A stretch of 64,000 nucleotides of DNA from an uncultured Gammaproteobacteria bacterium (lineage in GTDB: Bacteria > Patescibacteriota > Microgenomatia > Levybacterales > GWA1-39-11). The stretch is taken from contig CAYPEN010000003.1 in NCBI GenBank assembly GCA_964409875.1, positions 128,557 through 192,556 on the forward strand. Direction: 5' to 3'. The notes below the pieces were generated by a model. The model searched no databases and had not been told where the DNA came from. It was given only the letters and a program-made list of their open reading frames with translations. Both the position numbers and the translations under genes were made by a program. Positions 26,891-58,777 of the stretch are shown here, piece by piece (within the stretch, counting starts at the first letter, position 1; every line of letters begins with the position of its first letter).

Positions 26891-26894
26891 ATTT

Positions 26895-27902: not shown

Positions 27903-27906
27903 CAAT

Positions 27907-28704
27907 ATGAAAACTAAAACTTTCTTTTTAATAAGAACGGCTATTTTTAATTTTCTATATTATCTAACGAAAAGCGTTGATAGAAACTACAAATCTATAT
28001 TGTGTTTTCATAGTATTTCTAATAGCAATGACAGATATTCAATTTCTAAAGATATTTTTGAAAAAGAAATTATAAAAATAGCTAAAAACTCAAAATTTAT
28101 AAGTTTGGAACAAGCGTTAAGCCAAGAAAAATTGAGTAGCTCATCAGTAGCTATTACATTTGATGATGGGTATAGAGATATTTTAACAATATTGCCAATT
28201 CTTAAAAAGCACAATATTAAAGCGACAGCATTTGTTGTGTCTAATCCACAAAAAGTCTCAAGAGACGAACTAAAAAATGAAAATGCACTCCTATCTTTAG
28301 ACGAAATAAAACAGCTTTTGGAACACAAAATTGAAATAGGTTGTCACAGTGCAACACATAACGATTTAACTATATTAACTAAACGTGAGTTAGAAAAGGA
28401 AATTCTACAATCAAAAAAAGTTCTTGAAAAAAAACTTGGCGTAGAAGTGAAATACTTTGCCTACCCGAGAGGTAAATACAATAATAATGTGATACAAACG
28501 GTAAAAAGAGCAGGTTATAAGGCCGCTTTCTCCATAGATTCAGGGAATATATCTCCATCTAGCAATAAATGGATTTTACCGAGAACCATAATAGATAAAA
28601 CGCACAAACTTTCAGAATTTCCTTCCGTATATGCTCCCAGCACGATGTTTATTAGGAGATTAACAAATAACTTTGGTTTGTGGGAAAAATTCTTAGCAAT
28701 ATGA
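27907..28704 (+). CDS. polysaccharide deacetylase (CE4/NodB homology)
   Basis: ITFDDGYRD and CHSATH motifs. Confidence 0.65.
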   Translation: MKTKTFFLIRTAIFNFLYYLTKSVDRNYKSILCFHSISNSNDRYSISKDIFEKEIIKIAKNSKFISLEQALSQEKLSSSSVAITFDDGYRDILTILPILKKHNIKATAFVVSNPQKVSRDELKNENALLSLDEIKQLLEHKIEIGCHSATHNDLTILTKRELEKEILQSKKVLEKKLGVEVKYFAYPRGKYNNNVIQTVKRAGYKAAFSIDSGNISPSSNKWILPRTIIDKTHKLSEFPSVYAPSTMFIRRLTNNFGLWEKFLAI

Positions 28705-29615
28705 AAAACATTAGAAAAACAGTAACTGTAGGTATACCTGCTCATAACGAGCAAAACAATATTGCTCAATTACTAGAAGGTGTTTTGTCACAAAAAGGAA
28801 ATAGCTTTCTTTTGACAAAAGTAGTTGTTCTGTGCGATGGTTGTACGGATAAAACAGTAAGTATTGTATCAAAATATAAGAAAAAAAATAAAAAAATTGA
28901 ATTAAGAGATGATGGGTTGAGAGTCGGAAAAACAAGCAGATTGAATGAATTATTTACTAGTACCAATACAGATATTTGTATAACATTTGATGCAGACATT
29001 AAGCTAAATGATGTCAATGTGATAGAGGAATTGGTAAAGAAATTTAGAGATAAGAATATTGGATTAGTGGGAGGTTCTAATTTACCCTTGCCACCTAAAT
29101 CATTTTTTGAAAAAGTCGTCGTTGCATGGCTAATTTTATGGTATGAGGTGAGAAAAAACTACAATAATGGCAACACAATTCACAATCACTTAGGTTGCAT
29201 TACAGCTATGAGTAGGTCGTTATATAAAAAAACAATAATACCTTTAACAATATCTGCAGATGATGATTATCTTTACTTTAATGCACTTACTCAAAACTAT
29301 AAATTCGCTCATGCCGCCCATGCTAAGGTCTACTTTAGAAGTGCATCTACATTGAAAGACTTTTTCCTTCAACATTCAAGATTTTTAACTTTGAAGAATA
29401 ATATTCACTCACACTATGGGAACTGGGTTAATAATTATTATTACATCCCGATTGAAATTAAACTTAAGATTCTTATTAAGGAGTTCTTGAAAAACCCCTT
29501 CTACTTATCTCTTTCTGTTATATTGCAGCTTCTATTGCTCATCCATATTAAATTTACGAAATTTAATTACTCGAACGGGATGTGGAAGATTGCAATATCA
29601 TCAAAACAAATATGA
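28701..29615 (+). CDS. family-2 glycosyltransferase (paralog A)
   Basis: VTVGIPAHNEQNNI, DGCTDKT and FDADIKL. ATGA overlap with the upstream gene. Confidence 0.7.
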   Translation: MKNIRKTVTVGIPAHNEQNNIAQLLEGVLSQKGNSFLLTKVVVLCDGCTDKTVSIVSKYKKKNKKIELRDDGLRVGKTSRLNELFTSTNTDICITFDADIKLNDVNVIEELVKKFRDKNIGLVGGSNLPLPPKSFFEKVVVAWLILWYEVRKNYNNGNTIHNHLGCITAMSRSLYKKTIIPLTISADDDYLYFNALTQNYKFAHAAHAKVYFRSASTLKDFFLQHSRFLTLKNNIHSHYGNWVNNYYYIPIEIKLKILIKEFLKNPFYLSLSVILQLLLLIHIKFTKFNYSNGMWKIAISSKQI

Positions 29616-31114
29616 GTAACAAATTAAATAAAATTAAAAAGTACCGTGTTAGTAGTAATTTTATCGGTTACCTAATCCAAAACAACACAGCTTTAACTAT
29701 TTCGTTACTTGTTTTTTTTGTTTTAGTCGTTAGTTTGCTTGCCTCACCCTTAAAAAGCTTTTGGTCAGATGAAGTTTATAGTATAAATTTTTCAAGAACC
29801 CTAATACATACAGCAAAGTACAAAGATACAAATATGATGCTTTTTCATTTAATCCTTCATTATTGGATGCGGCTAGGAGAGAATGAGCTTGTATTAAGAA
29901 TATTGTCTACTGTTTTTGCATGTGCAACTATACCTTTCATCTATTTAATCGGTAAAAAACTTTTTAGCAAGGAAACTGGTTTGATTTCAGCAATCTTATT
30001 ATCAATAAATGTTTTTTTTATTGCTTATGCTCAAGAAGTAAGAAGTTATAGTCTGTTATTTTTGCTTTCAGCAATTTCAACTTATTACTTTGTACAAATA
30101 ATAAGTAAGCCCACCAAAAAACTTAATTACTTGTTTTATATTATTGCATCAGGATTATCTTTATATGCGCATTATTTTGCAATATTTCTAATCATCACTC
30201 ATTTCCTATATATTATTATTTTTAAAATTAGAAGCATAAAAATAAAATATTTATTTACAACTGGGATTTCTCTATTTCTTATTTGCATTCCTATTGTATT
30301 GATGTCGTCTTTAAATTCATCGCAAATAAATTGGCTTCCAAAACCCGGGCTAAAAAACGTTATTGGATTGCCATTTGTGCTTTCTGGTGATTTTCCTCCA
30401 ATTTTTATTAGTTACGGATTAATTGTATTTTATTTGATTTTCAAAACCATAGGAGGAATAAAAAAATCATCAATTAATAATGAGAAGATAATTAAGTATT
30501 TGTTGATTATATTTTTACTAGCAATACCACCTTTAATCACATTTTCTATTTCATTTTTCATAAAGCCAATAGTAACCTCTAAATACTTAATATTTTGTCT
30601 TTTACCTCTACTAATTCTAATCGGAAGTGGTATTGCCCAAATAAAATACAAAAAAATTAAATTTTTTGTTATGGTGATGCTAATTCTATTGGCCTTCATA
30701 CGTTTAGTAGCTTGGTTTAAGGATAGTAATTCAATCTACTGGGGATTATCTAACAAGAAGGATGATTGGAAGCAAATTGTTAAATTCACAAAGATGAATG
30801 CCGAAAACAGAGATGGAGTCACTTTTCTAACTTATTATTATGAAGAACCATTTCAATTTTATAACAAGAATACATCCAACCCTCTTAAGATATCAGAAAA
30901 AACAAACTATGCTTCTGATAAAAGCTTGCTATATATACCCAACACAAACTCATTGGTTGTAGCAGATTTTAGCTCTAGTAAAAAAATAGTATGGTTAATT
31001 GCTGATAATAATAGTCTGCCGATTTTGAGATATGTTGAAGGATTTGACTCTTATGCTCTAAATAGAACCTATAGCTTTGAAAGAGTTCAAGTTTTTAAAT
31101 TCGTAAAAAAATGA
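29612..31114 (+). CDS. GT-C fold membrane glycosyltransferase (ArnT/PMT-like)
   Basis: Eleven or more TM helices, with WSDEVYS (a DE-motif) in the first extracytoplasmic loop. Confidence 0.55.
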   Translation: MSNKLNKIKKYRVSSNFIGYLIQNNTALTISLLVFFVLVVSLLASPLKSFWSDEVYSINFSRTLIHTAKYKDTNMMLFHLILHYWMRLGENELVLRILSTVFACATIPFIYLIGKKLFSKETGLISAILLSINVFFIAYAQEVRSYSLLFLLSAISTYYFVQIISKPTKKLNYLFYIIASGLSLYAHYFAIFLIITHFLYIIIFKIRSIKIKYLFTTGISLFLICIPIVLMSSLNSSQINWLPKPGLKNVIGLPFVLSGDFPPIFISYGLIVFYLIFKTIGGIKKSSINNEKIIKYLLIIFLLAIPPLITFSISFFIKPIVTSKYLIFCLLPLLILIGSGIAQIKYKKIKFFVMVMLILLAFIRLVAWFKDSNSIYWGLSNKKDDWKQIVKFTKMNAENRDGVTFLTYYYEEPFQFYNKNTSNPLKISEKTNYASDKSLLYIPNTNSLVVADFSSSKKIVWLIADNNSLPILRYVEGFDSYALNRTYSFERVQVFKFVKK

Positions 31115-32030
31115 TTAAGAAATACACTGTCACAATAGCTTTAAGCGCTTACAACGAAGAGAATAATATTAAAAGTCTTTTAGAATCTGTTTTAGCGCAA
31201 AAAGAAACAAACTTTACAATAAAATCGATCTGGATTTTCTCGGATGGATCAAGGGATAATACTGCAAAGAAGGTAAAACAAATCAATGATAACAGAATAA
31301 AATTATTCAATTATAAAAGCCGTATGGGAAATCTGCTCGTTTAAATCAATTATATAGGATGTTATCTACTGATTTTCTTGTACAGACTGATGCAGATGTA
31401 GTATTTTCGCATAAATATGTCGTTAGAGATATTATTCAACCTTTAATTAATGAACGCGATGTAATGATGTGCGGTGGCAATCCTCACCCTATGCCTGCAC
31501 TAACATTTATAGAGAAATCAGTAAATTTTACTGTAAATGCATATATCCCATTACGCAAACTTTACAATGGTGGAGATAACATTTTTTCTGTTGATGGACG
31601 CCTACTTGCATATAAAAAAGAACTCGTAAAAAGAATTTTTATTCCAGAGGCGGAGGTTACAGCGAATGATGCATTTACGTACTTTTGCTGCCTTACTTTT
31701 GGCTATAAATATAAGTTTGTAGAAAGTGCAAAAGTATTTTTTAGGTCCCCACAGACTTTGAAAGATCATATAAAACAAAATACACGTTTTATGGCTATGC
31801 CAATAAAAATGAGCAAGTATTTCGACCCAACCCTCGTATTAAATGCAAAAAAAGTATCCAAAAAATTGTACTTAAAATTATTCATTAAAGCTTTTTTAAA
31901 AAATCCTATACATTGTTTTGCGATATTTTTAATAAATCTTTACATCAGACTAATATTCAAAAGTAGAGAAAAGCATCTGAAAGCTAAATGGCAAATAGCA
32001 AACACAACAAAGCTATTAAATTCCGTATGA
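31111..32030 (+). pseudogene. family-2 glycosyltransferase (paralog B) disrupted by a -1 frameshift near 31335
   Basis: ORFs 31111-31344 and 31359-32030 are the N and C halves of one GT2. A +1 shift after 'RMG' restores KSARLNQLYRMLSTDFLVQTDADV, which is collinear with the paralogs (RVGKTSRLNELF...FDADI). The break lies in an A-run (gggaaatct). Confidence 0.6.
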
Positions 32031-32932
32031 AAAATAACATAACTTTATCAATCGGCATACCAGTTCTTAATGAAGAGAAAAATATTTCAAATATTATTGA
32101 AGATATTTTTCAACAGGATTTAAGAACAGTTTCACTAGCAGAAATAATAGTTATTTCGGATGCAAGTTCCGATAGCACAGAACAAATAGTTGGGCGTTTT
32201 AAAAAGCCCGAAATTAAACTATATCGCAATGAAGAAAGAATCGGTAAGGCATTAACGCAAAATATAATAGCAAGGAAGGCAGCAGGAGATTTGTTGGTAC
32301 TGTTAGACGCTGATATTAGGATCAGAGACAAGAAATTTCTAGAAAAGTTAATAAAGCCTATAATGAATGACAAGCTAGTAGGTATAACCTCACCCAAAAT
32401 TTTACCGATAAAATCGGATACTTTTATTGGAGATGTTTTAGATTACAGTGTGAGAATAAAAAATAAAATTTACGAAAGTTATGATCATGGAAATAACATT
32501 TATTCATGTCATGGACGTGCTCGTGCGTTTTCCAAGAGATTATATAAAAAAATTAAATGGCCTAAAATATCTTCAGAGGACTCGTTTAGTTATTTGTATG
32601 CAATAAGCAATAAATTTAAATTCTGTTTGGTACCTGCAACTGAAATTTATTATAAATCTCCTCAAAACTATTTAGACCATTTGAGCCAAAGTCGACGATT
32701 TTTTGAAAGTGAGAAGGAGTTAGAAATGTATTTTCCAAAAAAAAAGCTACAAAAAGCCTTCAAGTTACCTTTTGTATTAACATTAAGGACAATTTGCCTC
32801 TACTTCCTATTTAATCCAATTTACTTTCTAATATATTTAATAGTATTAATTCGTGTGAAATTAAATAATAATGAATATGGGGTACTTTGGGTAATGTCAC
32901 AATCCTCGAAGGAGAGTATTGAACTAAAATAA
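32027..32932 (+). CDS. family-2 glycosyltransferase (paralog C)
   Basis: LSIGIPVLNEEKNI, SDASSDST and LDADIRI. ATGA overlap. Confidence 0.7.
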   Translation: MKNNITLSIGIPVLNEEKNISNIIEDIFQQDLRTVSLAEIIVISDASSDSTEQIVGRFKKPEIKLYRNEERIGKALTQNIIARKAAGDLLVLLDADIRIRDKKFLEKLIKPIMNDKLVGITSPKILPIKSDTFIGDVLDYSVRIKNKIYESYDHGNNIYSCHGRARAFSKRLYKKIKWPKISSEDSFSYLYAISNKFKFCLVPATEIYYKSPQNYLDHLSQSRRFFESEKELEMYFPKKKLQKAFKLPFVLTLRTICLYFLFNPIYFLIYLIVLIRVKLNNNEYGVLWVMSQSSKESIELK

Positions 32933-32933
32933 T

Positions 32934-34448
32934 ATGAAAAAGAATTTATTAAAAATTATTTTTATTAGCCTTATTGGTATTTTATTACTAACATTACTTT
33001 CTGTCGGTATAAAGGGACAGGCAAATAAACCGTACTATTATCAAGACTCCAAAAATAAGGAAGTAGGGGGTCCATTTGAAGCATCAAATAGCACGTCACG
33101 GTACGCATTGGTTGAATCGTTGGTAAATAATCATACCTTCCTTTTTGATGCAAAACAAACCTCCTTTTCTGCACCTGATGTTGTTATTTATAAAGGCAAG
33201 GCGTTTTCCATATTTACACCAGGTGTTTCATTTATTGCTGCTCCCTTTTATTTTTTAGGAAAGTTCATAGGAATTCCACAAATAGCCGCCTATTTTTCTA
33301 CAGTTGTTTTCGCCTTAATTAATGCTGCTCTAGTGTATTCAATTGCGCGAAGGCTTCAGGCGTCACGAATAGCATCTGTCTTTTCATCGGGTATTTTCCT
33401 TTTTGCAACCAACGCGCTTCCATATGCTTTTAGCCTTACACAACATCACTTTAGTCTAACCGTCATTTTACTTTCGTTGTTAAATGCTACCGAAAAAAGA
33501 ACTTGGATGAATGACATATTGTTCGGTATATACACAGGCGCTGCGTTACTTTTTGATATCCCAAATATTTTTCTCATTTTCCCAATTGGACTGTATGTAC
33601 TTTTCAGACACTTCAATGTGGAGAACATGTCTTCTAAATTAAAGTTGTCGGTAAAGCCTGTAATGCTTGCGATAATAGCAGGGATAATCCCTTTTGTTTT
33701 ACTTTTCTCAGTCTATAACCATGAGCTAACAGGTTCCTACACAAAAATTGGGCAAACAATAGGAAGAGCTGACTTTACGAATACAAAGGTAGTGCACGAG
33801 TCTCCAAAAAGCGTTTATGATAAAAAACTCCCGTTCAACACGAGAAATGAGATACAGGGGTTATACACGCTTCTTATTAGCAATGAAAGAAGTTGGTTGT
33901 GGTATTCACCTATTCTTCTGGTTGGTCTCGTGGGGGCTTATATCGGCTACAAGAAATCTGAAAAACGGACACTTACCATATTGCTTATTTCCCTTATAGT
34001 TACGAATATTATCATTTATTCAATGTTCGGAGACCCGTGGGGAGGGTGGGCATTCGGGCCGAGATATTTAATTCCGGGAGATGCCGCTCTTTCTATTCTT
34101 ATAGCGCTTGCAATTGATACATATCGCCGGCATCTGTTATTTAATAGCATCGTCCTTGTTCTTGTGTTTTATAGCATTTACATCAATGTATTGGGGATGA
34201 TGACAACAACAAGTATTCCTCCAAAACAAGAAGCCGAAGCACTCACAAAACCCATTCCATATACGTATCAGTACAATCAGAACCTGTCGGGGACAAATAA
34301 TTCAAAGTCTTACTTATATACTACGTATTTGCGAGACATTGTTGAACTTAATTCTTTCATAATTATTTACTCCTCTTTGGTGTTTTTGATACTTGCCTTA
34401 CCATATATGCGTTTTTGGTGGAAAGAAAAGGAGAAATTATGGATTTAA
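32934..34448 (+). CDS. polytopic membrane protein, probable GT-C glycosyltransferase
   Basis: Twelve or more TM helices. The first loop, TSRYALVES, resembles the Asp/Glu-x-x-Arg-Tyr loop of ArnT-like enzymes. Confidence 0.45.
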   Translation: MKKNLLKIIFISLIGILLLTLLSVGIKGQANKPYYYQDSKNKEVGGPFEASNSTSRYALVESLVNNHTFLFDAKQTSFSAPDVVIYKGKAFSIFTPGVSFIAAPFYFLGKFIGIPQIAAYFSTVVFALINAALVYSIARRLQASRIASVFSSGIFLFATNALPYAFSLTQHHFSLTVILLSLLNATEKRTWMNDILFGIYTGAALLFDIPNIFLIFPIGLYVLFRHFNVENMSSKLKLSVKPVMLAIIAGIIPFVLLFSVYNHELTGSYTKIGQTIGRADFTNTKVVHESPKSVYDKKLPFNTRNEIQGLYTLLISNERSWLWYSPILLVGLVGAYIGYKKSEKRTLTILLISLIVTNIIIYSMFGDPWGGWAFGPRYLIPGDAALSILIALAIDTYRRHLLFNSIVLVLVFYSIYINVLGMMTTTSIPPKQEAEALTKPIPYTYQYNQNLSGTNNSKSYLYTTYLRDIVELNSFIIIYSSLVFLILALPYMRFWWKEKEKLWI

Positions 34449-36049
34449 ATATAACGCTTCGTAAAAATTGGTTTTCTAGGCTTTCAAATTTTTTTTCCAA
34501 AAATGCGGTTTTGATTCTTATTATTATTCTTTCTGCAATTTCGGTTGCCAATTTTATCTATTATCTTAATAACCACCTGGGGCTTTCGTATAACGATGCA
34601 CGGTCCCACTTAGATATCGGAAGGAGAGTCGTTGAAGGGCTAAAGCCCGGGCTTGCGCAGCTTGGGTCCGTATGGCTTCCGTTGCCGCATTTGCTGATGG
34701 TCGCAACCATTTGGAATGACTTCATGTGGCATACTGGCCTTGCAGGAGCGATAGAGTCTATGGTTTCATTTGTTGCAACGGGGGTTTTGGTCTATCTATT
34801 TTTGAAAAATTTAGGAGTAGGGATGCTGGGCAGGCTTATTGGTGTTTTTGCATTTGTTGCTAATATTAACGTTTTGTATCTGCAGTCAACCGCCATGACA
34901 GAATTGCTGCTTCTTGCCACCATGACTGCCGGGGTATACGAGCTTTTTATGTGGCAGAAAGAGGGAAAACTCCTTCACCTTATATACTCGGCATTTTGGA
35001 TAATGCTTGCAACTCTCAATCGCTATGACGGGTGGTTTCTCTTTTTATGGGCTGCTGCAACCATAATTGTTCTTGCTTTCAGAAAAAAAGGCTTCAAGGT
35101 AGCTGAGGGGACATTTTTGTTTTTTATTACCTTAGGAGGCTTTGGTATTGCGTTGTGGTTCTTGTGGAATCTTCTTATTTTTAAAGACCCCCTGTATTTT
35201 GCATTCGGTCCGTATTCGGCCCATGCACAGCAACAACAACTCAAAGAAGCAGGGGTTTTGGCTACTAACCGCAACTTGCTGTTGTCGATTAAAGTGTACT
35301 TGTATGCGCTTGCCTATAACAGCTATACGGTGCCACTAATCTTAGGAACTCTCGGGGCTTTTGCGTTTTGGTTTGACACTAGAGTAAAAGGTAATATAAA
35401 GATTGCTACGTCATCACTTATTGCGCCATTAGTATTTAATATTCTTGCTTTGTTCTTAGGCTTTTCGGTGCTTTTTGTACAAGGGATTTCGGGTAACACA
35501 TGGTTTAATGTGCGGTATGGGATTATGATGGCACCCTCAATTGCTATTTTTATAGGGTTCTTGGTTGACCGGTTCAAAAATTTCAGGTGGTTATTTATTG
35601 TCCTTCTATTATTTATCACGTTCTTTGCATTTGCCAATAACGACGCGGTGACAATTGATGATGCCAGGGTTGGGTCTTCCCAAAAAAATGTTTCTGAAGT
35701 ATCGGGCTGGCTCAACAAGAACGCAAAAGACAAAGAAGGGTTTGTGCTTATTTCCGCTGCTTCGCATGACGCTATCATCTTTTCATCAGGACTTCCCATG
35801 AGTAAATTCATACATGAAGGAACCGGTACGTATTGGTTATCCGCAACATCTGCACCTGACAGGTGGGCCCGGTGGATAATTATGCGTACGAATGACTTAA
35901 ATGACCAGACATTCAAAGCTGTACATACAACTGCCGGGTACAAAAAATACAATTTGGTGGGTCACTATCCTTTTGCCGATATTTATGAATTAAAACCCGA
36001 GTATCTCAAAACCCTCAACACAAAGCCGACATTGGGCAAACAAAAATAG
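34439..36049 (+). CDS. polytopic membrane protein, probable GT-C glycosyltransferase
   Basis: RBS AAAGGAG lies 6 nt upstream. Has an NDARSHLDIGRR loop after TM1 and many TM helices. Confidence 0.45.
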   Translation: MDLNITLRKNWFSRLSNFFSKNAVLILIIILSAISVANFIYYLNNHLGLSYNDARSHLDIGRRVVEGLKPGLAQLGSVWLPLPHLLMVATIWNDFMWHTGLAGAIESMVSFVATGVLVYLFLKNLGVGMLGRLIGVFAFVANINVLYLQSTAMTELLLLATMTAGVYELFMWQKEGKLLHLIYSAFWIMLATLNRYDGWFLFLWAAATIIVLAFRKKGFKVAEGTFLFFITLGGFGIALWFLWNLLIFKDPLYFAFGPYSAHAQQQQLKEAGVLATNRNLLLSIKVYLYALAYNSYTVPLILGTLGAFAFWFDTRVKGNIKIATSSLIAPLVFNILALFLGFSVLFVQGISGNTWFNVRYGIMMAPSIAIFIGFLVDRFKNFRWLFIVLLLFITFFAFANNDAVTIDDARVGSSQKNVSEVSGWLNKNAKDKEGFVLISAASHDAIIFSSGLPMSKFIHEGTGTYWLSATSAPDRWARWIIMRTNDLNDQTFKAVHTTAGYKKYNLVGHYPFADIYELKPEYLKTLNTKPTLGKQK

Positions 36050-49017: not shown

Positions 49018-50153
49018 AGTGTACAATTAACCCATATATGCTTAAGTTAGGAAGTTTATTAACGAGAAGTTATAAACCGCTAAATGTAGTAGAGGTATTC
49101 CAAAAGAATCTTCTTTCAAATTACGAGTATCTTCAGTCATTTGGTCTAAAAGTAGCTCCTGTACTTAAGAGTAATGCGTATGGCCATGGGTTGGTTGAGG
49201 TTGCAAAAATTTTAGACAAGAAATCACCACCATTTTTTTGTGTAGACAGTCTCTATGAGGCTTATGAGCTTCTCAAAGCAGGTATTAAAACCAAAATTCT
49301 TATAATGGGTTATGTTGATCCTGAAAGCCTCATAACAAAAAGGCTTCCTTTTTCCTTTACTCTTTATACCTTGGAACAAATGAAGGTTTTGTCAAAATAC
49401 CAACCGCAAAGTCCGGTACATATTTTTGTTGATTCAGGAATGCACCGTGAGGGATTTCAGTTGGACATTCTGCAAAAAGTAACAGAGGAGCTGCATAAAA
49501 ATAGGTTAAAAATTGAAGGAATAATGTCTCACTTTGCTGAGGCAGAAAAGCCCTTCAAAAGGCAAACAAAGAAACAAATTGATGTGTTTAAAGCTGCACT
49601 CCAAACAACAACACGACTTAATGTTTTCCCTGAATTCGTTCATTTTTCTAATACTTCCGGTACGATTACTATAAAAGAACTTGGGGGTATAGGTAATGTT
49701 GCGCGTTGCGGATTGGGTTTGTATGGCATAGATCCTGACGGGAAAAATAAAAAGCTTTTGCCTGCGCTTCAATTAAAGAGCACGGTAGCTCAGTTGAAAG
49801 AGATATCAAAAGGAGAGTATGTAGGATACGGATTTACGTATAGAACAGATATGAAAAGAAAAATTGCAATCTTGCCATTAGGGTACAACGACGGCTTAGA
49901 TAGAAGGCTATCAAATAGTGGATTTGTGTATATTGACGAAATTGCTTGTCCCATTGTTGGAAGAGTAAGCATGAATATTACAACGGTGGATGTCACAAAA
50001 TGCAGAAATGTAAAAGTTGGAGATGAGGCAATCGTTTTTTCTCGTAAGACTGATGATAGAAATAGCATTCAAAATGCAGCAAAAGCTGCAAAGACAATAC
50101 CGTATGATTTATTAGTACATTTGAATTTTTCAACGCGAAGGATTGTGCGTTAG
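49014..50153 (+). CDS. alr: alanine racemase
   Basis: PLP-lysine motif VLKSNAYGHG and the alanine-racemase C-terminal domain. ATGA overlap. Confidence 0.8.
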   Translation: MKCTINPYMLKLGSLLTRSYKPLNVVEVFQKNLLSNYEYLQSFGLKVAPVLKSNAYGHGLVEVAKILDKKSPPFFCVDSLYEAYELLKAGIKTKILIMGYVDPESLITKRLPFSFTLYTLEQMKVLSKYQPQSPVHIFVDSGMHREGFQLDILQKVTEELHKNRLKIEGIMSHFAEAEKPFKRQTKKQIDVFKAALQTTTRLNVFPEFVHFSNTSGTITIKELGGIGNVARCGLGLYGIDPDGKNKKLLPALQLKSTVAQLKEISKGEYVGYGFTYRTDMKRKIAILPLGYNDGLDRRLSNSGFVYIDEIACPIVGRVSMNITTVDVTKCRNVKVGDEAIVFSRKTDDRNSIQNAAKAAKTIPYDLLVHLNFSTRRIVR

Positions 50154-50422
50154 TTTTTTAAGTTTTGCGCTGCTTTCAATTTTCTAGCAGTTGCTAAGAC
50201 ATCGAGTTTCTTTTGCTTTTCTTCTTTTAGTTCATCTGACTTTTGTTTTAACGCTTCGAGTTTTTGCTCAACAATCTTTTGGCATTCTTTGTCCGGGCAA
50301 ACGGTATCAGTGTGAATAATAGTTGAAGTTCCGAAAAATGTGGCAATTTCTTCTTTCCACTTTTTTCCTTCAATACGCTCTTTTCCGCATCGAGTACATG
50401 GATTTGAAGATTTTGGTTGCAT
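50150..50422 (-). CDS. small hypothetical protein with CxxC...CxxxC and a coiled-coil tail
   Basis: CTRCGK...CPDKEC, then a Lys/Glu-rich helix. Confidence 0.35.
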   Translation of the reverse strand: MQPKSSNPCTRCGKERIEGKKWKEEIATFFGTSTIIHTDTVCPDKECQKIVEQKLEALKQKSDELKEEKQKKLDVLATARKLKAAQNLKN

Positions 50423-50478: not shown

Positions 50479-52002
50479 TTAGGCAGACGTTTCTTGGTAG
50501 CCGGGGAAAAAGTCAACCTTTATATTTTTCTGGTTCACGCCTGTTTCTTTCAGAACCTTCTCAAAATTTTGAACCATCAGCTGAGGACCCGAGACGTAGA
50601 ATTTCCGCTTCTGAAAGTCAGGGATTACCAAACGAATTGTTTCGGGTGTCACATGGCCTACAAGGCCCTTCCATTCCTGTGGCAGCAAGCTTTTATCTGT
50701 AAGTATGTAATGGGTTGTGACACCATGTGCTCTCGCTCTCTCCAGAGTATCCATAAAAAGAATATCCTCTTTCTTTTTGTTAGCGAAAAGTATAACAATA
50801 TTTACGTTTTCTTTCCTTTCAATGATGTCCTCAATAATGCTTCGGAATGGTGCTATTCCAACCCCTCCGGCAATAAACACAAGGGGAGTAGTGTGGTCCT
50901 TTGGCATCGTAAAGTCGCCAGAGAGACTTGAAGCGATAAAACGAGTATCTTTTTGCATGGCAAAAAGCGCCCTCTTGTACGTGCTTGAGGGGGTGTAGAA
51001 TTTTACAGCCATCATGAGATTTTCATGAGGCGCAGAAGCTATACTAAAGTACCTTCTGTTGCCTCTGGAGTCTGGATTTGGATGGGGAAGAGTCCATTCC
51101 ATATATTGGCCGGGCGTAAAATTGAACTTTTTTTGAGGCCCAAAATCAAATAAAAATGTGTCGGGGGAAATTTGAGTTTTCTTAAAGAGGGTTAGGTCAA
51201 AACGATATTTAGGATTAACGATGTATGAGAATATATTGCCCGCAACAAGTGCCATTTCAGGGGTAAATACAGGTCCTCCAAGTCTTAGAATTGGGGTTGC
51301 ATACAAAAGAGAAACGAGTAGCGCATACAATGTTCTCATTTTTTTTGTTGCCGGAGAAGTGAGTGGTTCGGTAAGCATTATAAAAGTGAAAAACAGTAAT
51401 GCGGATGACATGAAACCCCGTTGCCACAAGGTAATAATCGAATTGCCATGAAGTATAGCGGCAACGGCTGAAAGAATTAAGTAAGAAAGTAAAAAAACGG
51501 AAGCCATAAAGCCTCTCTGTACTTTTCTTACAATAAGTAATCCACCGAGTGCAACCGGTACGAAGAGGAGGGGGGTTCCTACCCACCACGTTGCCGAATG
51601 CTCGGGGGAGAGGATGGAGAGCATAAGAACAGCAATGGCTGCGGGATTAAAAAGGTGCCTCTTTTCGACTGTCAGAAGATACTTAGAGCCCATTGCAAGA
51701 AGTGAAACAGCAATGAGTCCCCCTATCTGATGGGGAAATTTAACGGGAAATATGAGAACTACTATCAGTCCTGTTATAAAAACACTCTCAACGTTGGTTA
51801 CCGCTTTGAAAAATATAGCAAATAGCCAATTTGAAAACAGACAGACAGAAAGAACTACAAGAGTTGAGAGGAGAATATCCAAAGCACCATAGTAAATAAG
51901 TCCGAAAAAGCCTAGGGAAGTGGCAATTGCAACAAGCACAATGAGATAGTACAGGGTAAGCCTGTACATCGTAATTTTATTAAGATACTTGTCTATGAAC
52001 AT
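50479..52002 (-). CDS. polytopic membrane domain fused to an FNR-like FAD/NAD(P)-binding oxidoreductase domain
   Basis: The first ~270 aa have 6-8 TM helices with four His. The C-terminus has RYFSIASAP (RxYS FAD motif) and GGVGIAPF (NAD(P) motif). Confidence 0.55.
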   Translation of the reverse strand: MFIDKYLNKITMYRLTLYYLIVLVAIATSLGFFGLIYYGALDILLSTLVVLSVCLFSNWLFAIFFKAVTNVESVFITGLIVVLIFPVKFPHQIGGLIAVSLLAMGSKYLLTVEKRHLFNPAAIAVLMLSILSPEHSATWWVGTPLLFVPVALGGLLIVRKVQRGFMASVFLLSYLILSAVAAILHGNSIITLWQRGFMSSALLFFTFIMLTEPLTSPATKKMRTLYALLVSLLYATPILRLGGPVFTPEMALVAGNIFSYIVNPKYRFDLTLFKKTQISPDTFLFDFGPQKKFNFTPGQYMEWTLPHPNPDSRGNRRYFSIASAPHENLMMAVKFYTPSSTYKRALFAMQKDTRFIASSLSGDFTMPKDHTTPLVFIAGGVGIAPFRSIIEDIIERKENVNIVILFANKKKEDILFMDTLERARAHGVTTHYILTDKSLLPQEWKGLVGHVTPETIRLVIPDFQKRKFYVSGPQLMVQNFEKVLKETGVNQKNIKVDFFPGYQETSA

Positions 52003-52006
52003 AGGG

Positions 52007-52744
52007 TTACGGTGTAAGGTATAGGGAAAAGCCAGAGCTTATAAGCTCTCTTCCATCTTTTGTTATCAAATATCCTTCAAGCCCATCGCTATTCTCCAAA
52101 AATTCTAATCCTTTTTCGCCCATTGCATATACCGCTGTTGCGAATCTATCGGCCTCATACACATTGGGAGCTATTACCGTTACACTCGACAACTCGTTTG
52201 CAAGCTTCTTTTTTATTGGGTTATAGATATGCATTCCCCTCTCATAGGTGCCTGAGGTTGCTATTCCGCAGTCGGTAAGATAGAGAACTTTTGCATTTTC
52301 AAACGTTCTCAACGGATTTCGTACTCCCACTTTCCATTTCTGTCCATTTTTGAGTCCCCGAATATCAATGTCCCCCCCAATTTCTACGTAGAAATTTCTG
52401 TATCCTTTTTTCATAAGCATCCTGGAACCTTCAAATATGGCATACCCCTTTACAAGTCCTGAGGGATCGATAATACCCTCAATGGTGATATCAAAATATC
52501 CTTTTGTTTTTTGCTTCGTTTCTTCACAAAGTTTTAATACTTTTTTTACTTCCGGGCTCGCATCTTCTTTTTTCAGCAACTTTTTATTAATTTTTGAAAT
52601 CTCACTTGTTTTTTTGTAGGTACTGAATGTCTCGTCAATTTCATGGAAATAATCGAGCACCTCGTCAATATCAGTGCTCTTGACTGTGGGCTCGAGAACC
52701 TCCACTGCAACGCTCATGCCCATTATCCCTTCCGTTATTTTCAT
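52007..52744 (-). CDS. apbE: ApbE-family FAD:protein FMN transferase
   Basis: Carries an SKIN motif, YFDITIEG and GLVKGYA, which are characteristic ApbE regions. No signal peptide is detectable. Confidence 0.65.
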   Translation of the reverse strand: MKITEGIMGMSVAVEVLEPTVKSTDIDEVLDYFHEIDETFSTYKKTSEISKINKKLLKKEDASPEVKKVLKLCEETKQKTKGYFDITIEGIIDPSGLVKGYAIFEGSRMLMKKGYRNFYVEIGGDIDIRGLKNGQKWKVGVRNPLRTFENAKVLYLTDCGIATSGTYERGMHIYNPIKKKLANELSSVTVIAPNVYEADRFATAVYAMGEKGLEFLENSDGLEGYLITKDGRELISSGFSLYLTP

Positions 52745-52751
52745 ATTCGTC

Positions 52752-53258
52752 TCAGTTTTGGGCTTTCTTCAACGCCTCTGCTAGTGACCGTGAGAAGGCT
52801 GGACTTGAATCGGAAGCCCCACTAATTATATCAATCGAAGCACTCTGTGCATTAATAGCCTCATCCCGCAATAGTGGGATTGCCTGAGTATTAATTGAAA
52901 TTGAAGTCCGGTTGTCATTGGGATAGAGGAGGGGAACTACATCAGTAAGTCTGCCATTTTTTATGACTGCTCTTACCTGTAAATTCCCATAAAATGCGTC
53001 TTCTACTGTTCCGTCATACGACCCATCGCGGTATTTTCCCGCAATTTTTACCGTCGGAGTAGGTGTTATCGGGGTAATTGTTGGATTTATTGTCTCTTGA
53101 GGATTTGGGGTTGAGCTGGCATTTTCCTGTGTTGGAATTGGCAGAGTTTGTTTATTGCCTACGATTTTTACGTCGTCATCGCTTCCTCTCAAGTTTTTTG
53201 CAAACACAAGCAAAAAAAAAGCCCCCAGAACAACTGTTATCTGAATGTATTTTTTCAT
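52752..53258 (-). CDS. membrane-anchored FMN-binding-domain protein (NqrC/RnfG-like), predicted ApbE flavinylation target
   Basis: N-terminal TM anchor. C-terminal DIISGASDSS matches the Dxx[ST]GA[TS] flavinylation motif. Confidence 0.6.
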   Translation of the reverse strand: MKKYIQITVVLGAFFLLVFAKNLRGSDDDVKIVGNKQTLPIPTQENASSTPNPQETINPTITPITPTPTVKIAGKYRDGSYDGTVEDAFYGNLQVRAVIKNGRLTDVVPLLYPNDNRTSISINTQAIPLLRDEAINAQSASIDIISGASDSSPAFSRSLAEALKKAQN

Positions 53259-54489: not shown

Positions 54490-55749
54490 TTACTCATAGC
54501 GAAGTGCCTCTATGGGTTGTAGATTTGCAGCTTTTCTTGCAGGATACCATCCGAAAAGTATCCCGATTCCCCCCGATACAGCAAATGCCAGTAAAATTGA
54601 ATAGAGTGAGATAACAAAAAGAGAGGAGGTAAGAATTGAGTATCCATAGGACAATACAATTCCAAGTAGAATTCCGATAAGGCCCCCTGTAAAAGTCAGA
54701 ATAATCGACTCTATAAGAAATTGAGTAATAATGGTTTTCTTTTTTGCTCCTAACGCTTTTCTGAGGCCAATTTCACGGGTACGTTCCGTTACCGTGACGA
54801 GCATAATGTTCATAATCCCTATTCCCCCGACTAGCAGCGAAATAGCCGCTATACCTGCCAGGAAGGTGGTGAAAGTTCCAGTCGCTTGCGAGGCGGTTGC
54901 GAGAATATCAGCCTGTGAAAAGATGGAAAAGTCGGCTTGGGTAGGTTCTGACAGTTTGTGCCGGGAAAGGAGCAGATAGCCCACCTGATTCTGAGCATCG
55001 GTCATCACATCAGACGATTTAGCTTCAAGAGCTATTGAGTTTAAATAGGCTTGTCCAAAAACAATTTTTTGGGCTGTCAGAAGCGGGATGAAGGCAACGT
55101 TGTCTTGATTAAAAAATCCGCTTCCTCCTTTGCTTTTTGTAATCCCTACGACTCGAAATGGAATTCCGCTAATACGAACGCTTTGTCCCGTAACGTTTGT
55201 AGCGTTTCCAAAGAGGTCACTTGCTGCTTGCGGGCCTAAGACTATTACTTTTGAAAGTGACAGGTTATCAGTATCTGTAATAAATGCTCCTGAATCTATG
55301 GTTATCTTATGAACATCAGGATATGAGCTTGTTGCCCCAATTATTTGAACGTTCGTATTTGTTCTTCCTGCCGTTACTTGCTCTCGTTTTTGCACTTCGG
55401 GGGAAACAGTCTTGACTGTCGTTACAAGCGGGGATGTTTTTATTGCTTTAGCATCGTCATTTGTTAGAGTTGTCCCACCACCTGCCGCTCCCCTAACAGT
55501 GCCGGTTGTAAGAGAACCGGGATTAACAGTGAGTAAATTTGCCCCAAGGGACTGTATTTGGTTTTGAACAGACTGCTGGGTGGACTGTCCTAGCGACACA
55601 AGTACGATTACACTTCCTATTCCGATAACTATTCCCAAAATTGCAAGACTTGTTCGCATTTTGTTAATAGTAAGTGTTGAAAGGCTTTCTGAAAGAAGTT
55701 CCTGTAGTTCTTTCCTATTCATTTCTCTCCCTTCTATTTTTCTCATCAC
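54490..55749 (-). CDS. ABC transporter permease, FtsX/MacB family
   Basis: TM1, then a large extracytoplasmic domain, then three C-terminal TM helices (FtsX fold). Confidence 0.75.
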   Translation of the reverse strand: MMRKIEGREMNRKELQELLSESLSTLTINKMRTSLAILGIVIGIGSVIVLVSLGQSTQQSVQNQIQSLGANLLTVNPGSLTTGTVRGAAGGGTTLTNDDAKAIKTSPLVTTVKTVSPEVQKREQVTAGRTNTNVQIIGATSSYPDVHKITIDSGAFITDTDNLSLSKVIVLGPQAASDLFGNATNVTGQSVRISGIPFRVVGITKSKGGSGFFNQDNVAFIPLLTAQKIVFGQAYLNSIALEAKSSDVMTDAQNQVGYLLLSRHKLSEPTQADFSIFSQADILATASQATGTFTTFLAGIAAISLLVGGIGIMNIMLVTVTERTREIGLRKALGAKKKTIITQFLIESIILTFTGGLIGILLGIVLSYGYSILTSSLFVISLYSILLAFAVSGGIGILFGWYPARKAANLQPIEALRYE

Positions 55750-56446
55750 TTATTATTTTCCCATCCTTTATCATTATCAGCCTTTTGGCATAGCGTGCGA
55801 TATCTGGCTCATGGGTAATCATAACGATTGTGTGTCCCTCTTTTTGATTTAGATTTTGAAAAATTGCCATTATTTCTTCAGCCTGATCAGACGCAATATT
55901 GCCTGTAGGCTCATCCGCTAAAAGGAGCGTTGGATTCATAGAAATACCGCGTGCTATAGCGACGCGTTGTTGTTGCCCTCCCGATAACTGACTGGTGGTG
56001 TGTTCCATTCTTTCAGATAGTCCAACCATGGAAAGATATTTCTTAGCACTCATAAGACGCTTTTCATAGGCAATTCCCGCATAGCGCATGGGAAGCATAA
56101 CGTTTTTCAATGCAGACGTCCTAGGGAGGAGATTGAATGCTTGAAAAACAAATCCTATTTTTTTGTTGCGGATTTCTGAGAGTTCATCTTCAGTCAACTT
56201 GCCTACGTTGTGTCCATCAAGAAGGTACGTTCCGGAGGTTGGTGTATCAAGTGCGCCGAGTATATGCATGAGAGTTGATTTGCCGCTACCTGAAGGTCCC
56301 ATTATTGCGACAAACTCTCCTTTTCTAATTTCAAAGGATACATCCTGAAGAGCGGTCGTTTCGATATCTCCCATCGTATACTTTTTGGTCAAATGGGAAA
56401 CTTTAATTATTGGAGTAGTCATATTATCTCCCCCGTGCTCCACCAA
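55715..56446 (-). CDS. ABC transporter ATP-binding protein (MacB/LolD-type)
   Basis: Walker [10 protein letters not shown], signature [13 protein letters not shown] and Walker B LLLADEPT. Confidence 0.85.
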
Positions 56447-57722
56447 TTACCCGTACGTTGCCTCCTCCCCCAAATCCTCCAAAGCCCCTGTTTAGGCCAC
56501 TAAAAGGAGATGTTCCACCTGCTTGGGAAGTCGTTTGGCCGCCTACAACCACAGTATCACCCTCCGATAGCCCTGAGATAATTTCTGTCGAGGCATCCGA
56601 CGCAATTCCAGTTTCCACCTCAACAACCTCTATCTTTCCGTTTCGTAAGCGCTCAACAGTTGGGGTTCCTGACGCAGTTTGGATAGCTGTTGTGGGAATT
56701 GTCAGTACGTTATCATGTCGCGCTGTTTGGATAATGGCAGTAGCACTCATTCCAGGTTTAATTGCAGCGGGTGGAAGTACGAGGGAAATGTAAGCCGTAA
56801 ATGTAACGACGCCTGAAGTATTAGTTCCAATTGTGTCAATACTTGTTACACGGCCGACAAAAGTTTGGTCAGGGAAAGCATCAAGCGTTACCGTTGCCTT
56901 TTGTCCTACCTTTACTTTCGATATGTCTATTTCATTGACAGGAGCTTTGATTGAAAGTTGCGAAAAATTTCCAAGCACTAAAATAGGAGTGCCCGACGTA
57001 TTGGAATTATTTGTTGCACTGTTGTTATAGGTAGTACCAGTTGCGGTGACATTACTACCGACTCCTAAAGAAAAATTTGCAACAGTTCCTGCAATCGGTG
57101 CTGTGATAGTTGAATCTTGTGTTGCCGCATAGGAAAGCGAGGCTGCATTATAAGATGCATTAGCCGCGGCAATTACACCTTGCTGATTTTTATAGTCCGC
57201 TTCCGCCTGGAGCCAGTCTGCGTTTTCCCGTATATAGGTTGGGTCGGTTTTTTGTTGTTCTGTCGGATTTTGAATACCACGGTCAGTTACAAATGCCTGG
57301 TTAGCCTTGAATAGGGCAGATTGTAAAGAATTCATTTTTGCTTGTGAAGCTTTTAGATTGTTTTGGGCGGTTAGTAAAGCGGCAAGTGCTTGCTCCTGTT
57401 CTTGGGGTGTTGCAGTAGATTTTACGCTGAATAAATTTTGTCCCGGCTCTACCTCGTCTCCGTTTCTCACATATATCTGAGATATAACCCCATTGGTAGG
57501 CGAGCCAACATTTGTTTGGCTATCGGATGTAACATTTCCGCTTTCGGTAACACTTTCAACAATATTTTCCCTTGCAACAATGGCTGTTTGGTACTGTGTT
57601 TGCGGGTTTTTTTTGTTCCAATTTAAGAGTAGGAAAAGTACTAATATGACACCAGCGATAAGAGCAAAGACCCTCGCTTTGAGAGACATTTTATAAATAA
57701 CACCTAAAATTTTTGACTTCAT
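56424..57722 (-). CDS. HlyD/MacA-family periplasmic adaptor (membrane-fusion protein)
   Basis: N-terminal TM, a coiled-coil hairpin region and beta-barrel/MP domains. Gly-rich C-terminus. Confidence 0.6.
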   Translation of the reverse strand: MKSKILGVIYKMSLKARVFALIAGVILVLFLLLNWNKKNPQTQYQTAIVARENIVESVTESGNVTSDSQTNVGSPTNGVISQIYVRNGDEVEPGQNLFSVKSTATPQEQEQALAALLTAQNNLKASQAKMNSLQSALFKANQAFVTDRGIQNPTEQQKTDPTYIRENADWLQAEADYKNQQGVIAAANASYNAASLSYAATQDSTITAPIAGTVANFSLGVGSNVTATGTTYNNSATNNSNTSGTPILVLGNFSQLSIKAPVNEIDISKVKVGQKATVTLDAFPDQTFVGRVTSIDTIGTNTSGVVTFTAYISLVLPPAAIKPGMSATAIIQTARHDNVLTIPTTAIQTASGTPTVERLRNGKIEVVEVETGIASDASTEIISGLSEGDTVVVGGQTTSQAGGTSPFSGLNRGFGGFGGGGNVRVIGGARGR

Positions 57723-57775
57723 AAATTGTTCCCAATTATAATTTTCTTATCTGAAATTCAGCTTAACGCAGGGTC

Positions 57776-58777
57776 TTAAACAGGCAACTCAACTGTAAAA
57801 GTGGAGCCTTTCTTTGAAGAAGAGCAGGAGATTGCACCTTTGTGCATGGAGACGATTTCCTTAGCAATTGAAAGTCCCAACCCATAACCTGGAACGTCTG
57901 AAGAATTCCTGCTTTTATCGACCCTATAAAACCTGTCGAATATCCGTTCTTGTTCCTCTTCTGGTATTCCTATTCCCTGGTCCGTTACGTCAATGGTTGC
58001 GACTCCGCCTGTAACGCGTGAGCGGATTACAATTTTAGTGGAAGAATTGCTATATTTTATAGCGTTATCCAGCAAAATGGTAAAAAGTTGAGTAAGACTT
58101 TTCGTATTCCCAACTACCGTTATTTGTGGAGTTTTGTTGAGGATTGTTATCTTTTTTTCCCGTGCCACACCCGAGACGGTTTTTATTGCGCTCTCGATAA
58201 CAGAAAACATTTCTACCTTCTCAAAACTTACCACGGTGCTCTCAAGGCTTGTAAGCCGCATCAAATGCTCTGTCAAACCCTGCAGTCTTATGACTTCTTC
58301 TAAATTACTTTTTAGTATCGCGTCGGATTCTGAAAGTGTTCTTTTTTTTCCCATTAAATACACCTCTATTTCTGAGCGAAGGGTCGTGAGCGGTGTTTTG
58401 AGCTCATGTGACGCATCCCCTATAAAACGTGCCTGATCCTCGACTGCTTTTTTTATCGGGTCAAGAGTTCTTCCCGCTAGAAAATAGCCGGCAATTCCAG
58501 CACCCGCAAGGATACAAATATTTAACACAATAAGGCTTGCAATAAGCCTGCTTCTCGCCTCATACACTAACTGTTCATCAAAAGGGTTGGTTTCATATGG
58601 CACCTGAGCTTCTCCGAGTTGTTCGCGGATTCTCTCTTGCCGGAGTTCCTGATAGTGCTCAAAACGTACGAGTTCACGGTTCACGTCGACAAAAATGACG
58701 ACGCTGAATATAAAACTGATAAGCATAATAAGAAGAAGGTACCAGGCGGTTAGTTTGAGACGGGTGGAGTGGAACAT
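57776..58777 (-). CDS. sensor histidine kinase (two TM helices, short extracellular loop)
   Basis: H-box SHELKTPL, N-box LLDNAIKYS and G-box GYGLGLSIAKEIV. Confidence 0.75.
   Translation of the reverse strand: MFHSTRLKLTAWYLLLIMLISFIFSVVIFVDVNRELVRFEHYQELRQERIREQLGEAQVPYETNPFDEQLVYEARSRLIASLIVLNICILAGAGIAGYFLAGRTLDPIKKAVEDQARFIGDASHELKTPLTTLRSEIEVYLMGKKRTLSESDAILKSNLEEVIRLQGLTEHLMRLTSLESTVVSFEKVEMFSVIESAIKTVSGVAREKKITILNKTPQITVVGNTKSLTQLFTILLDNAIKYSNSSTKIVIRSRVTGGVATIDVTDQGIGIPEEEQERIFDRFYRVDKSRNSSDVPGYGLGLSIAKEIVSMHKGAISCSSSKKGSTFTVELPV

Follow-up and report, generated by a model that had tools for sequence, protein, structure and literature searches.

A candidate NQR/RNF-like, all-flavin transmembrane electron conduit and its signal-less flavin transferase in a bacterium of the Candidate Phyla Radiation

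Results

Gene organization at the locus

The DNA analyzed here is a stretch of 64,000 nucleotides (contig CAYPEN010000003.1 of assembly GCA_964409875.1, positions 128,557 to 192,556), hereafter referred to as the window, and its closest genome records are metagenome-assembled genomes of Candidatus Levyibacteriota (Microgenomatia), a lineage of the Candidate Phyla Radiation (CPR). Between positions 50479 and 53258 of the window, three abutting open reading frames (ORFs) on the minus strand encode a small flavin mononucleotide (FMN)-binding subunit, an ApbE-type enzyme that transfers FMN from flavin adenine dinucleotide (FAD) to proteins, and a membrane::FNR fusion protein (Table 1). Judging from the comparisons described below, this locus is probably an operon for an Nqr/Rnf-like two-subunit, all-flavin transmembrane electron conduit that is equipped with its own flavin transferase. 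The three adjacent minus-strand genes had been proposed in an initial annotation, and they were recovered both in the ORF listing and in an independent gene call, which yielded the same three products on a public contig whose fusion protein is 100% identical. Since the spacers between the FMN-binding subunit gene and the ApbE gene and between the ApbE gene and the fusion gene comprise only 7 nt (TGA gacgaat ATG) and 4 nt (TAA ccct ATG), respectively, the three genes form one tightly coupled operon.

Table 1. Features of the three-gene module, with coordinates given as positions in the window.
Feature	Position	Strand	Description
FMN-binding subunit gene	52752..53258	-	168 aa; anchor helix, Pro/Thr-rich linker, C-terminal FMN_bind domain
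N-terminal signal-anchor helix of FMN-binding subunit	53187..53252	-	residues ~3-24; MKK followed by hydrophobic stretch
Flavinylation motif D143-I-I-S-G-A-S149	52812..52832	-	direct sequence reading; S149 is the predicted FMN phosphoester site
ApbE-type FAD:protein FMN transferase gene	52007..52744	-	245 aa, compact; without signal peptide or lipobox
Membrane::FNR fusion gene	50479..52002	-	507 aa
NqrB/RnfD-like membrane domain of fusion	51208..52002	-	residues 1-265, ~10 helices
FNR-type FAD/NAD(P)H-binding domain of fusion	50479..51207	-	residues 266-507 and stop codon

Domain structure of the fusion protein

The view that the largest of the three proteins combines a polytopic membrane domain with an FNR-type FAD/NAD(P)H domain was substantiated by two Pfam matches, PF03116 (NQR2_RnfD_RnfE; 40.1 bits with a cut-off of 27.7), which covers residues 20-140 and a second stretch within roughly the first 240 residues, and PF00175 (NAD_binding_1; 57.1 bits, E 3.3e-15), which covers residues 376-480, together with a weak match to PF00970. 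Among the NCBIfam models, weak matches to rnfD (TIGR01946), RsxD and NqrB were accompanied by matches to many FNR-family reductases. An AlphaFold2 (AF2) model of the fusion, with a mean predicted local distance difference test score (pLDDT) of 87, consists of about ten membrane helices (residues 12-32, 40-65, 71-84, 93-109, 120-131, 144-161, 164-185, 189-210, 220-234 and 248-262) followed by a two-lobed FNR fold. For the C-terminal half the best sequence matches in the PDB were cytochrome b5 reductase (E 3e-18) and NqrF (E 3e-17), and Foldseek likewise retrieved NqrF FAD domains and flavohemoglobin for the FNR domain at E values of 1e-15 to 1e-17. Four FNR motifs were invariant in 114 homologues, namely the FAD motif R316-R-Y-F-S320, the NAD(P)H motif G379-G-x-G-x-x-P385, S471-G-P473 and D497-x-F-P-G-Y502.

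When the PDB was searched with a membrane-domain profile, the matches included NqrB of Vibrio cholerae (7xk3_B) at E 7.8e-4 and RnfD (8ahx_D). In the profile alignment to V. cholerae NqrB, T77, H116, N119 and E212 of the fusion fall on T162, N200, N203 and D346, whose side chains, in NQR structures at 2.1 Å, are the four that form hydrogen bonds with riboflavin (PMC10643135, Extended Data Fig. 6). H116, N119 and E212 were found in 114 of 114 homologues and T77 in all except one, and the only two substitutions relative to NqrB, N to H and D to E, are conservative. H116 lies within a KRHxFNPA motif. The initial annotation had described four conserved His in this domain; four are indeed present in the protein of the window (H91, H116, H135 and H185), but H116 alone is invariant among the 114 homologues, while H135 is retained in 79 and H91 and H185 are variable. 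Because the riboflavin ligands are kept, only a single His is invariant and a ferric-reductase domain is missing, the domain would appear to bind flavin rather than heme, and it is best read as a flavin-binding module that retains the non-covalent flavin pocket of NqrB but has given up a covalent FMN of its own.

The loop that carries the covalent FMN in NqrB comprises about 65 residues (213-278), as compared to 18 residues (131-148) at the aligned position of the fusion, and its sequence there, PEHSATWW, does not contain the DxxSGAT motif, of which both the Asp and the Gly are lacking. At this site the family instead displays an x-A-[S/T]-W-W motif (residues 132-143, window 51574-51609), in which the Ala and the Trp-Trp pair are invariant. 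The hydroxyl residue is Thr in the protein of the window and in 101 of the 114 close homologues, and about 68 of the 80 loci that were compared in detail (see below) have Ser or Thr there, the others Ile, Val, Asn or Gly. Since Ser or Thr is thus kept in only about 85-89% of the members, the hydroxyl residue cannot be obligatory, and the loop may represent a vestigial or facultative flavinylation site or, alternatively, a docking surface for the flavin of the small subunit.

The FMN-binding subunit and its predicted topology

As a single sequence the 168-aa protein scored 17.5 bits against Pfam FMN_bind (PF04205), which is under the cut-off of 22 bits, and roughly half of its homologues likewise have no precomputed PF04205 match. 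However, the identity of the domain and of its flavinylation motif DIISGASDSS (residues 143-152), both of which had been proposed in the initial annotation, became apparent when homologues were considered together. A profile of 73 homologues matched 8p2a, domain 2 of SaFMN3 with covalently bound FMN, at E 1.8e-19, and the same structure was the best Foldseek match (TM score 0.81, 34% identity). The [ST]GA[ST] core of the motif occurs 18-21 residues from the C-terminus in all 67 homologues from related loci, and so does the longer form [DNSQ]xx[ST]GA[ST], with the leading Asp changed to Asn, Ser or Gln in 20 of them; among the 73 proteins of the profile G147 and A148 never vary, and conservation of S146 and S149 reaches 90% or more. 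In 8p2a the segment aligned with the motif is VSGAT, to the Thr of which FMN is bound, and Y90 aligns with the flavin-stacking Tyr14 of that structure (PMC10339131).

The AF2 model of the subunit shows a helix at residues 3-24, a disordered stretch at residues 27-71 and a domain at residues 72-168 with a pLDDT of about 90. The disordered linker is 45 residues long and rich in Pro, Thr, Ser and Asn. In every homologue the anchor begins with a basic pair, which is followed by an h-region of 16-18 residues with a mean Kyte-Doolittle hydropathy of 2.1-2.3. Lys and Arg are more frequent on the N-terminal side of the helix, where there are typically two, than after it, where there are 0-2, and this asymmetry is most pronounced in Chloroflexota, with up to five before the helix versus 0-1 after it. 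Since the positive charges are concentrated on the N-terminal side, the sequence indicates an anchor that is oriented N-in, C-out, with the FMN domain on the outside.

The residues ahead of the anchor helix conform to a [RK][RK]-F/Y-x-L/Q-S/I motif that is conserved across CPR and Chloroflexota (e.g., MKKFFLS, IRKFLLS and IRRFFLS). The basic pair in 61 anchors was KK in 47, RK in 10, RR in 2 and KR in 2. Although a system for twin-arginine translocation (Tat) exists in some Microgenomatia (PMC9166423), export of a folded and pre-flavinylated subunit by this route was not supported, given the occurrence of RR in only 2 of the 61 anchors and the strongly hydrophobic h-regions.

Distribution and synteny among relatives

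When one genome per GTDB species was scanned, relatives of the fusion were encoded in at least 583 species genomes. The best 80 loci, which were selected for a detailed comparison, belong to Levy-, Davies-, Ames-, Collier-, Kaiser-, Adler-, Azam-, Uhr-, Andersen-, Wirth- and Peregrinibacteria, WWE3, Saccharimonadales, Paceibacteria and many Chloroflexota, with more than 15 CPR lineages in all. In a database of 5.8 billion proteins, 6447 clusters reached E <= 1e-5 out of 8000 candidates that were scored for the fusion, and the top 120 clusters were all about 510 aa in length, most of them with both domains. With the membrane domain alone, 246 clusters were found at E <= 1e-30 and 726 at E <= 1e-10 (50%-identity representatives), mostly fusions of 480-530 aa.

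Sufficient upstream DNA for an assessment of gene order was available at 72 related loci. ApbE and FMN_bind genes were both located on the strand of the fusion at 62 of these loci, and in 60 of the 62 (60/72) the order was that of the window, FMN_bind, ApbE and fusion, with genes that abut or overlap. All-against-all clustering of the ORFs from the 80 loci revealed no gene that is conserved beside the three-gene module. In the window the module is adjoined by genes for a MacB-type ABC exporter, an HlyD-like adaptor, a histidine kinase and a response regulator (54490-58777, minus strand). Homologues of the exporter and the two-component system recur in about 15 of the 80 loci, which probably reflects lineage synteny within Levybacteria and not a functional link.

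A compact ApbE without an export signal

The 245-aa protein matched PF02424 at E 7.7e-45 and ApbE chains in the PDB at E 1.8e-17. In alignments with the V. cholerae and Escherichia coli structures, H172 corresponds to the catalytic His in the RYSHIIDP segment of the V. cholerae enzyme, D199 and T203 correspond to the Asp and Thr of the Mg2+-binding ADGLAT motif, and GIATSGTY (ATSGxY) is conserved. The proposed function as an FAD:protein FMN transferase is therefore well founded insofar as the predicted catalytic and Mg2+-binding residues are intact. About 45 residues of the canonical enzyme (V. cholerae ApbE 105-148) are absent, and the ApbEs of the related loci are all similarly compact (~245-252 aa).

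The initial annotation had noted that the ApbE lacks a detectable signal peptide, and this peculiarity turned out to be a property of the family and not an annotation artefact. The ORF in the window opens at the earliest start codon that the in-frame stop just upstream permits, and this start coincides with the first β-strand of the domain; reading of the ORF revealed no lipobox. None of the 62 related loci in which the start could be examined offers room for a signal peptide in the ApbE frame, and the position equivalent to ApbE residue 1 is in most of them within about -3 to +18 nt of the upstream gene's stop codon. A hidden signal peptide or start codon was rejected, as the longer stop-to-stop extensions, which overlap the FMN_bind gene in a different frame, are not hydrophobic. 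A fusion of FMN_bind and ApbE by read-through or frameshifting was also rejected, since the 7-nt spacer puts the two genes out of frame with each other and their offset is not constant from locus to locus.

Other genes in the window

The genes near the module, which encode an alanine racemase, a polysaccharide deacetylase, a P-type ATPase, a GIY-YIG protein, the MacB-type exporter and two-component systems, are unrelated to it. Consistent with the impression given in the initial annotation, no respiratory complex genes were found in the scanned parts of the window. Directly downstream of the fusion gene, at a distance of 56 nt, lies a 90-aa ORF (50150-50422, minus strand) with a zinc-ribbon-like CxxC...CxxxC N-terminus and a Lys/Glu-rich coiled-coil tail; no family was found for it in Pfam or NCBIfam, nor is it conserved downstream of the module in the other loci among the 80. 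A scan for promoters and terminators gave counts of 10 and 4, not above the expectations of 9.1 and 3.4 from shuffled sequence.

At a distance of about 30 kb from the module, a gene for a 578-aa fusion of DsbD_TM/CcdA-like, Redoxin/AhpC-TSA and Thioredoxin_10 domains (19228-20964, minus strand) would represent a second, thiol-based transmembrane reductant route. Genes for glucose-6-phosphate dehydrogenase (5035-6489) and a 6-phosphogluconate-dehydrogenase-like protein (4115-5038) adjoin each other on the minus strand (4115-6489), and as NADPH producers their products could feed an FNR domain that uses NADPH. A stretch of low GC content (0.29-0.34 compared to about 0.40 elsewhere) at approximately 26000-34000 carries genes for glycosyltransferases of families 2 and 4, PMT_2 mannosyltransferase-like proteins, a kinase and a polysaccharide deacetylase and looks like a surface-glycan island. 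Three large ORFs of 317, 531 and 544 aa (432-2984 and 34415-36049, plus strand) had no Pfam match at E <= 1e-5.

Discussion

Proposed path of electrons

The combination of domains at this locus suggests a short chain of flavins that would lead from the cytoplasm to the outer face of the membrane. In this scheme the cytoplasmic FNR-type domain of the 507-aa fusion would oxidize NAD(P)H on its FAD, and the electron would pass to a non-covalent flavin in the NqrB-riboflavin-type pocket in the cytoplasmic half of the membrane domain and from there to the FMN that is predicted to be linked as a phosphoester to Ser149 of the helix-anchored small subunit, whose domain would thereby fill the place of the covalent FMN that NqrB itself carries. 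The 245-aa ApbE would attach this FMN from FAD. The last step would deliver the electron to an extracytoplasmic acceptor, and it seems most likely that this acceptor is diffusible or a mineral, such as Fe(III), flavins, humics or O2, or that the system acts as a general reductant of the envelope, for instance for an envelope enzyme. A VIT1 iron transporter was reported in six published clusters of this type (Méheust et al. 2021, PMC8238504). Flow from NAD(P)H to the FMN domain would be downhill if the domain resembles that of SaFMN3, which has a midpoint potential of -184 mV and is oxidized by O2 (PMC10339131). Because a net outward flow of electrons would not conserve energy, the benefit to the cell likely lies in redox balance or extracellular reduction. 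The same NAD(P)H-to-outside model has been put forward in two in-silico studies (PMC8238504; PMC11334425).

Such a device would be of interest for CPR bacteria, which are considered to live by fermentation and to have no respiratory chains (PMC9166423), and to which a flavin-only outlet for NAD(P)H could offer a redox outlet or a means to reduce iron, oxygen or envelope substrates. With three genes, about 920 codons and many relatives, the locus represents a small and expressible test case.

Alternative interpretations

Several observations weigh against the conduit as drawn above. The literature searched contained no experimental work on any member of the family, and neither the clustering of the 80 loci nor inspection of 10 kb on either side of the module disclosed a linked acceptor gene. 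The predicted topology has the positive-inside rule and homology as its sole basis. The fusion itself may carry a second, facultative covalent flavin at its A-[S/T]-W-W motif, to judge from the conservation of this loop. Moreover, extracytoplasmic targets are normally flavinylated outside the cell by lipoprotein ApbEs, and the known signal-less ApbEs serve cytoplasmic targets (PMC12052999), whereas in none of the 62 loci does the ApbE of this conduit carry an export signal, even though its target is predicted to be outside. These last points would be explained if the FMN domain faced inward, either through an N-out, C-in anchor or as a peripheral domain, and were flavinylated in the cytoplasm, with electrons exchanged between NAD(P)H and an acceptor in the membrane or cytoplasm. 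This arrangement would resemble the pair of a cytoplasmic ApbE' and fumarate reductase in Klebsiella pneumoniae. The sole signal-less ApbE documented in bacteria serves a cytoplasmic target (PMC12052999), and the arrangement is in agreement with the lack of h-region-like stretches in the upstream stop-to-stop extensions of the ApbE genes. It nevertheless appears unlikely to us in view of the Lys and Arg on the N-terminal side of the anchor, the 45-residue disordered linker that follows it, the outward orientation of the homologous partner loop of NqrB and of NqrC (PMC10643135) and a published AlphaFold-multimer model that places the subunit on the outer face (PMC11334425).

Other alternatives concern the membrane domain. 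NqrB is the Na+-conducting subunit of NQR and has a short central helix VIII (PMC10643135), the counterpart of which in the model of the fusion would be helix 200-210. It is therefore conceivable that the Na+/H+ path of NqrB/RnfD has been kept and that the protein works as a mini-pump in which ion movement is coupled to electron transfer between the two flavins, or in reverse, with an ion gradient that drives electrons inward from an external donor to NAD(P)+. We consider this improbable, as no other pump subunits (NqrC/D/E or RnfA/E/G as such) are encoded within 10 kb on either side and outward electron flow from NAD(P)H dissipates the membrane potential instead of building it. The frequent annotation of the fusion as 'RnfABCDGE type electron transport complex subunit D' could be taken to mean that the locus is a remnant of an RNF or NQR complex whose products work with subunits encoded elsewhere in the genome. 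This is very improbable given that 60 loci from distant phyla contain the three-gene unit without a further rnf or nqr gene next to it, that the FNR fusion replaces the NqrF/RnfC input module and that the covalent-FMN loop is deleted. Least credible of all is an enzyme of the heme-containing NOX or ferric-reductase type, in which two b-hemes on four His would take up electrons from the FNR domain and hand them on to O2 or Fe(III). The succession of a membrane domain and a C-terminal FNR domain does resemble NOX/FRE proteins, and the NOX structure 8qt6 is among the Foldseek matches, but with a root-mean-square deviation of 14.7 Å and through the FNR domain alone. There is no match to PF01794, the membrane domain being PF03116, and the check for a heme-binding pattern, which calls for two His pairs, found a single invariant His among the 114 homologues, H116, which aligns with the riboflavin ligand N200 of NqrB. 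The heme reading was consequently rejected and can be regarded as effectively refuted by the sequence.

Site of flavinylation

The signal-less ApbE leaves three options, namely flavinylation on the cytoplasmic side, an inward-facing FMN domain, against which the evidence on topology speaks, or an ApbE that reaches the outside by another route. As an export signal is lacking throughout the family, we adopt the first of these as a working guess, according to which the target would be flavinylated on the cytoplasmic side before or during the insertion of its C-terminal part by the Sec/signal recognition particle (SRP) pathway. Such a reaction is chemically feasible, since truncated targets in the cytoplasm of E. 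coli are fully flavinylated by a signal-less ApbE (PMC10339131; PMC12052999), as was the SaFMN3 relative (PMC10339131). The more far-reaching proposal that the compact, signal-less ApbE modifies the SGA[ST] site in the cytoplasm prior to or during Sec/YidC threading, and that the conduit is widespread in CPR and Chloroflexota and has been overlooked, is put forward tentatively, and we think it rather doubtful as a whole. If it were true, FMN would already be attached upon export and no export of FAD would be needed, which would amount to a new biogenesis route for extracytoplasmic flavoproteins, and a heme-free and quinone-free conduit would constitute a widespread NAD(P)H outlet of CPR and Chloroflexota that escaped notice through signal-peptide filters. 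In any case, a family-wide signal-less ApbE bears on the question in the field of where and how FAD and ApbE meet exported targets.

Comparison with known systems

The initial annotation likened the module to two kinds of systems, and the likeness to NQR/RNF as an NAD(P)H-to-outside device agreed with all sequence tests, while that to the flavin-based extracellular electron transfer (EET) of Gram-positive bacteria did not hold, as no such genes are found nearby. In the Listeria EET system (Ndh2, EetA/B, DmkA/B, PplA and FmnB) an ApbE-family enzyme likewise flavinylates an anchored extracytoplasmic FMN_bind protein that acts as the last protein-bound carrier. However, FmnB and PplA are lipoproteins, whereas the ApbE of the window is signal-less and its target is anchored by a helix; the membrane is crossed via the quinone pool in Listeria but would be crossed via an NqrB-like flavoprotein here; and none of the genes for Ndh2, EetA/B, DmkA/B, PplA or FmnB occurs in the 10 kb on either side of the module. 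Proteins of the NOX/FRE/STEAP group, such as NOX of Streptococcus pneumoniae (8qt6), share the fusion of a cytoplasmic FNR-type domain to a membrane domain that carries electrons outward, but theirs is a six-helix ferric-reductase domain with two b-hemes and four His, while the fusion has an unrelated NqrB-type fold. To our knowledge, CPR bacteria are usually devoid of heme synthesis and of quinones, and heme-free flavin carriers would suit them. SaFMN3 and CbFMN4 (8p2a, 8p2b) are the closest solved relatives of the FMN domain and have the VSGA[ST] site and the stacking Tyr in common with it, but they are secreted and consist of three or four domains in tandem, in contrast to the single-domain, anchored protein of the window, which is encoded together with a membrane reductase.

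With NqrB and RnfD the fusion shares the homologous PF03116 domain, the xFNPA and T[DE]P riboflavin motifs and the ten-helix layout with a short central helix VIII. It differs from them in carrying its own NAD(P)H/FAD input domain, in the loop that in NqrB spans about 65 residues and bears the flavinylated Thr (T236) but has only 18 residues in the fusion, and in the proposed direction of electron flow through the domain, which is the opposite one; moreover, no quinone site is evident. Genes for NqrA/C/D/E/F or RnfA/B/C/E/G were found neither within 10 kb on either side, nor in the scanned parts of the window, nor at the 80 related loci.

The closest correspondence is with the NQR/RNF-like system of Méheust et al. 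2021 (eLife 10:e66878), which has an identical architecture of N-terminal PF03116 and C-terminal PF00175. That system was defined as a PF03116-PF00175 fusion within five genes of ApbE (PF02424) or FMN_bind (PF04205) (PMC8238504), and in the window both domains reside in one protein with ApbE directly upstream and the FMN_bind gene beyond it. NQR/RNF-like systems were reported mainly from CPR and Actinobacteria, and a one-way flow from NAD(P)H to the outside was proposed for them (Méheust et al. 2021, Huang et al. 2024). Huang et al. 2024 (mSystems 9:e00375-24) modeled the two-subunit complex by AlphaFold-multimer, with a membrane subunit that has no flavinylation site and a small subunit docked on the outer face, the FMN of which lies near the non-covalent flavin site (PMC11334425). 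The locus described here thus differs in no way in kind from a system that was named in 2021 and modeled in 2024.

The published census comprises 127 clusters, for which a predicted signal peptide in the cluster and Pfam matches at E <= 1e-3 were required (Méheust et al. 2021, PMC8238504). At the locus of the window the FMN_bind protein has an N-terminus of MKK and a hydrophobic stretch, and the ApbE has no signal feature. These two filters plausibly account for the difference between 127 clusters and the at least 583 species genomes counted here, because the ApbE is without a signal and the FMN_bind subunit is often without a Pfam match, and the "striking under-representation" that was reported for flavinylation in CPR plausibly has the same cause in part, which suggests that published censuses may undercount it. 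Relative to these studies our additions are incremental and consist of the signal-less and compact ApbE, a much wider distribution and the conserved residues of the predicted riboflavin pocket, since the finding that the positions aligned with the riboflavin ligands of NqrB are invariant or nearly so among the 114 homologues of the fusion, together with a shortened covalent-FMN loop, is new.

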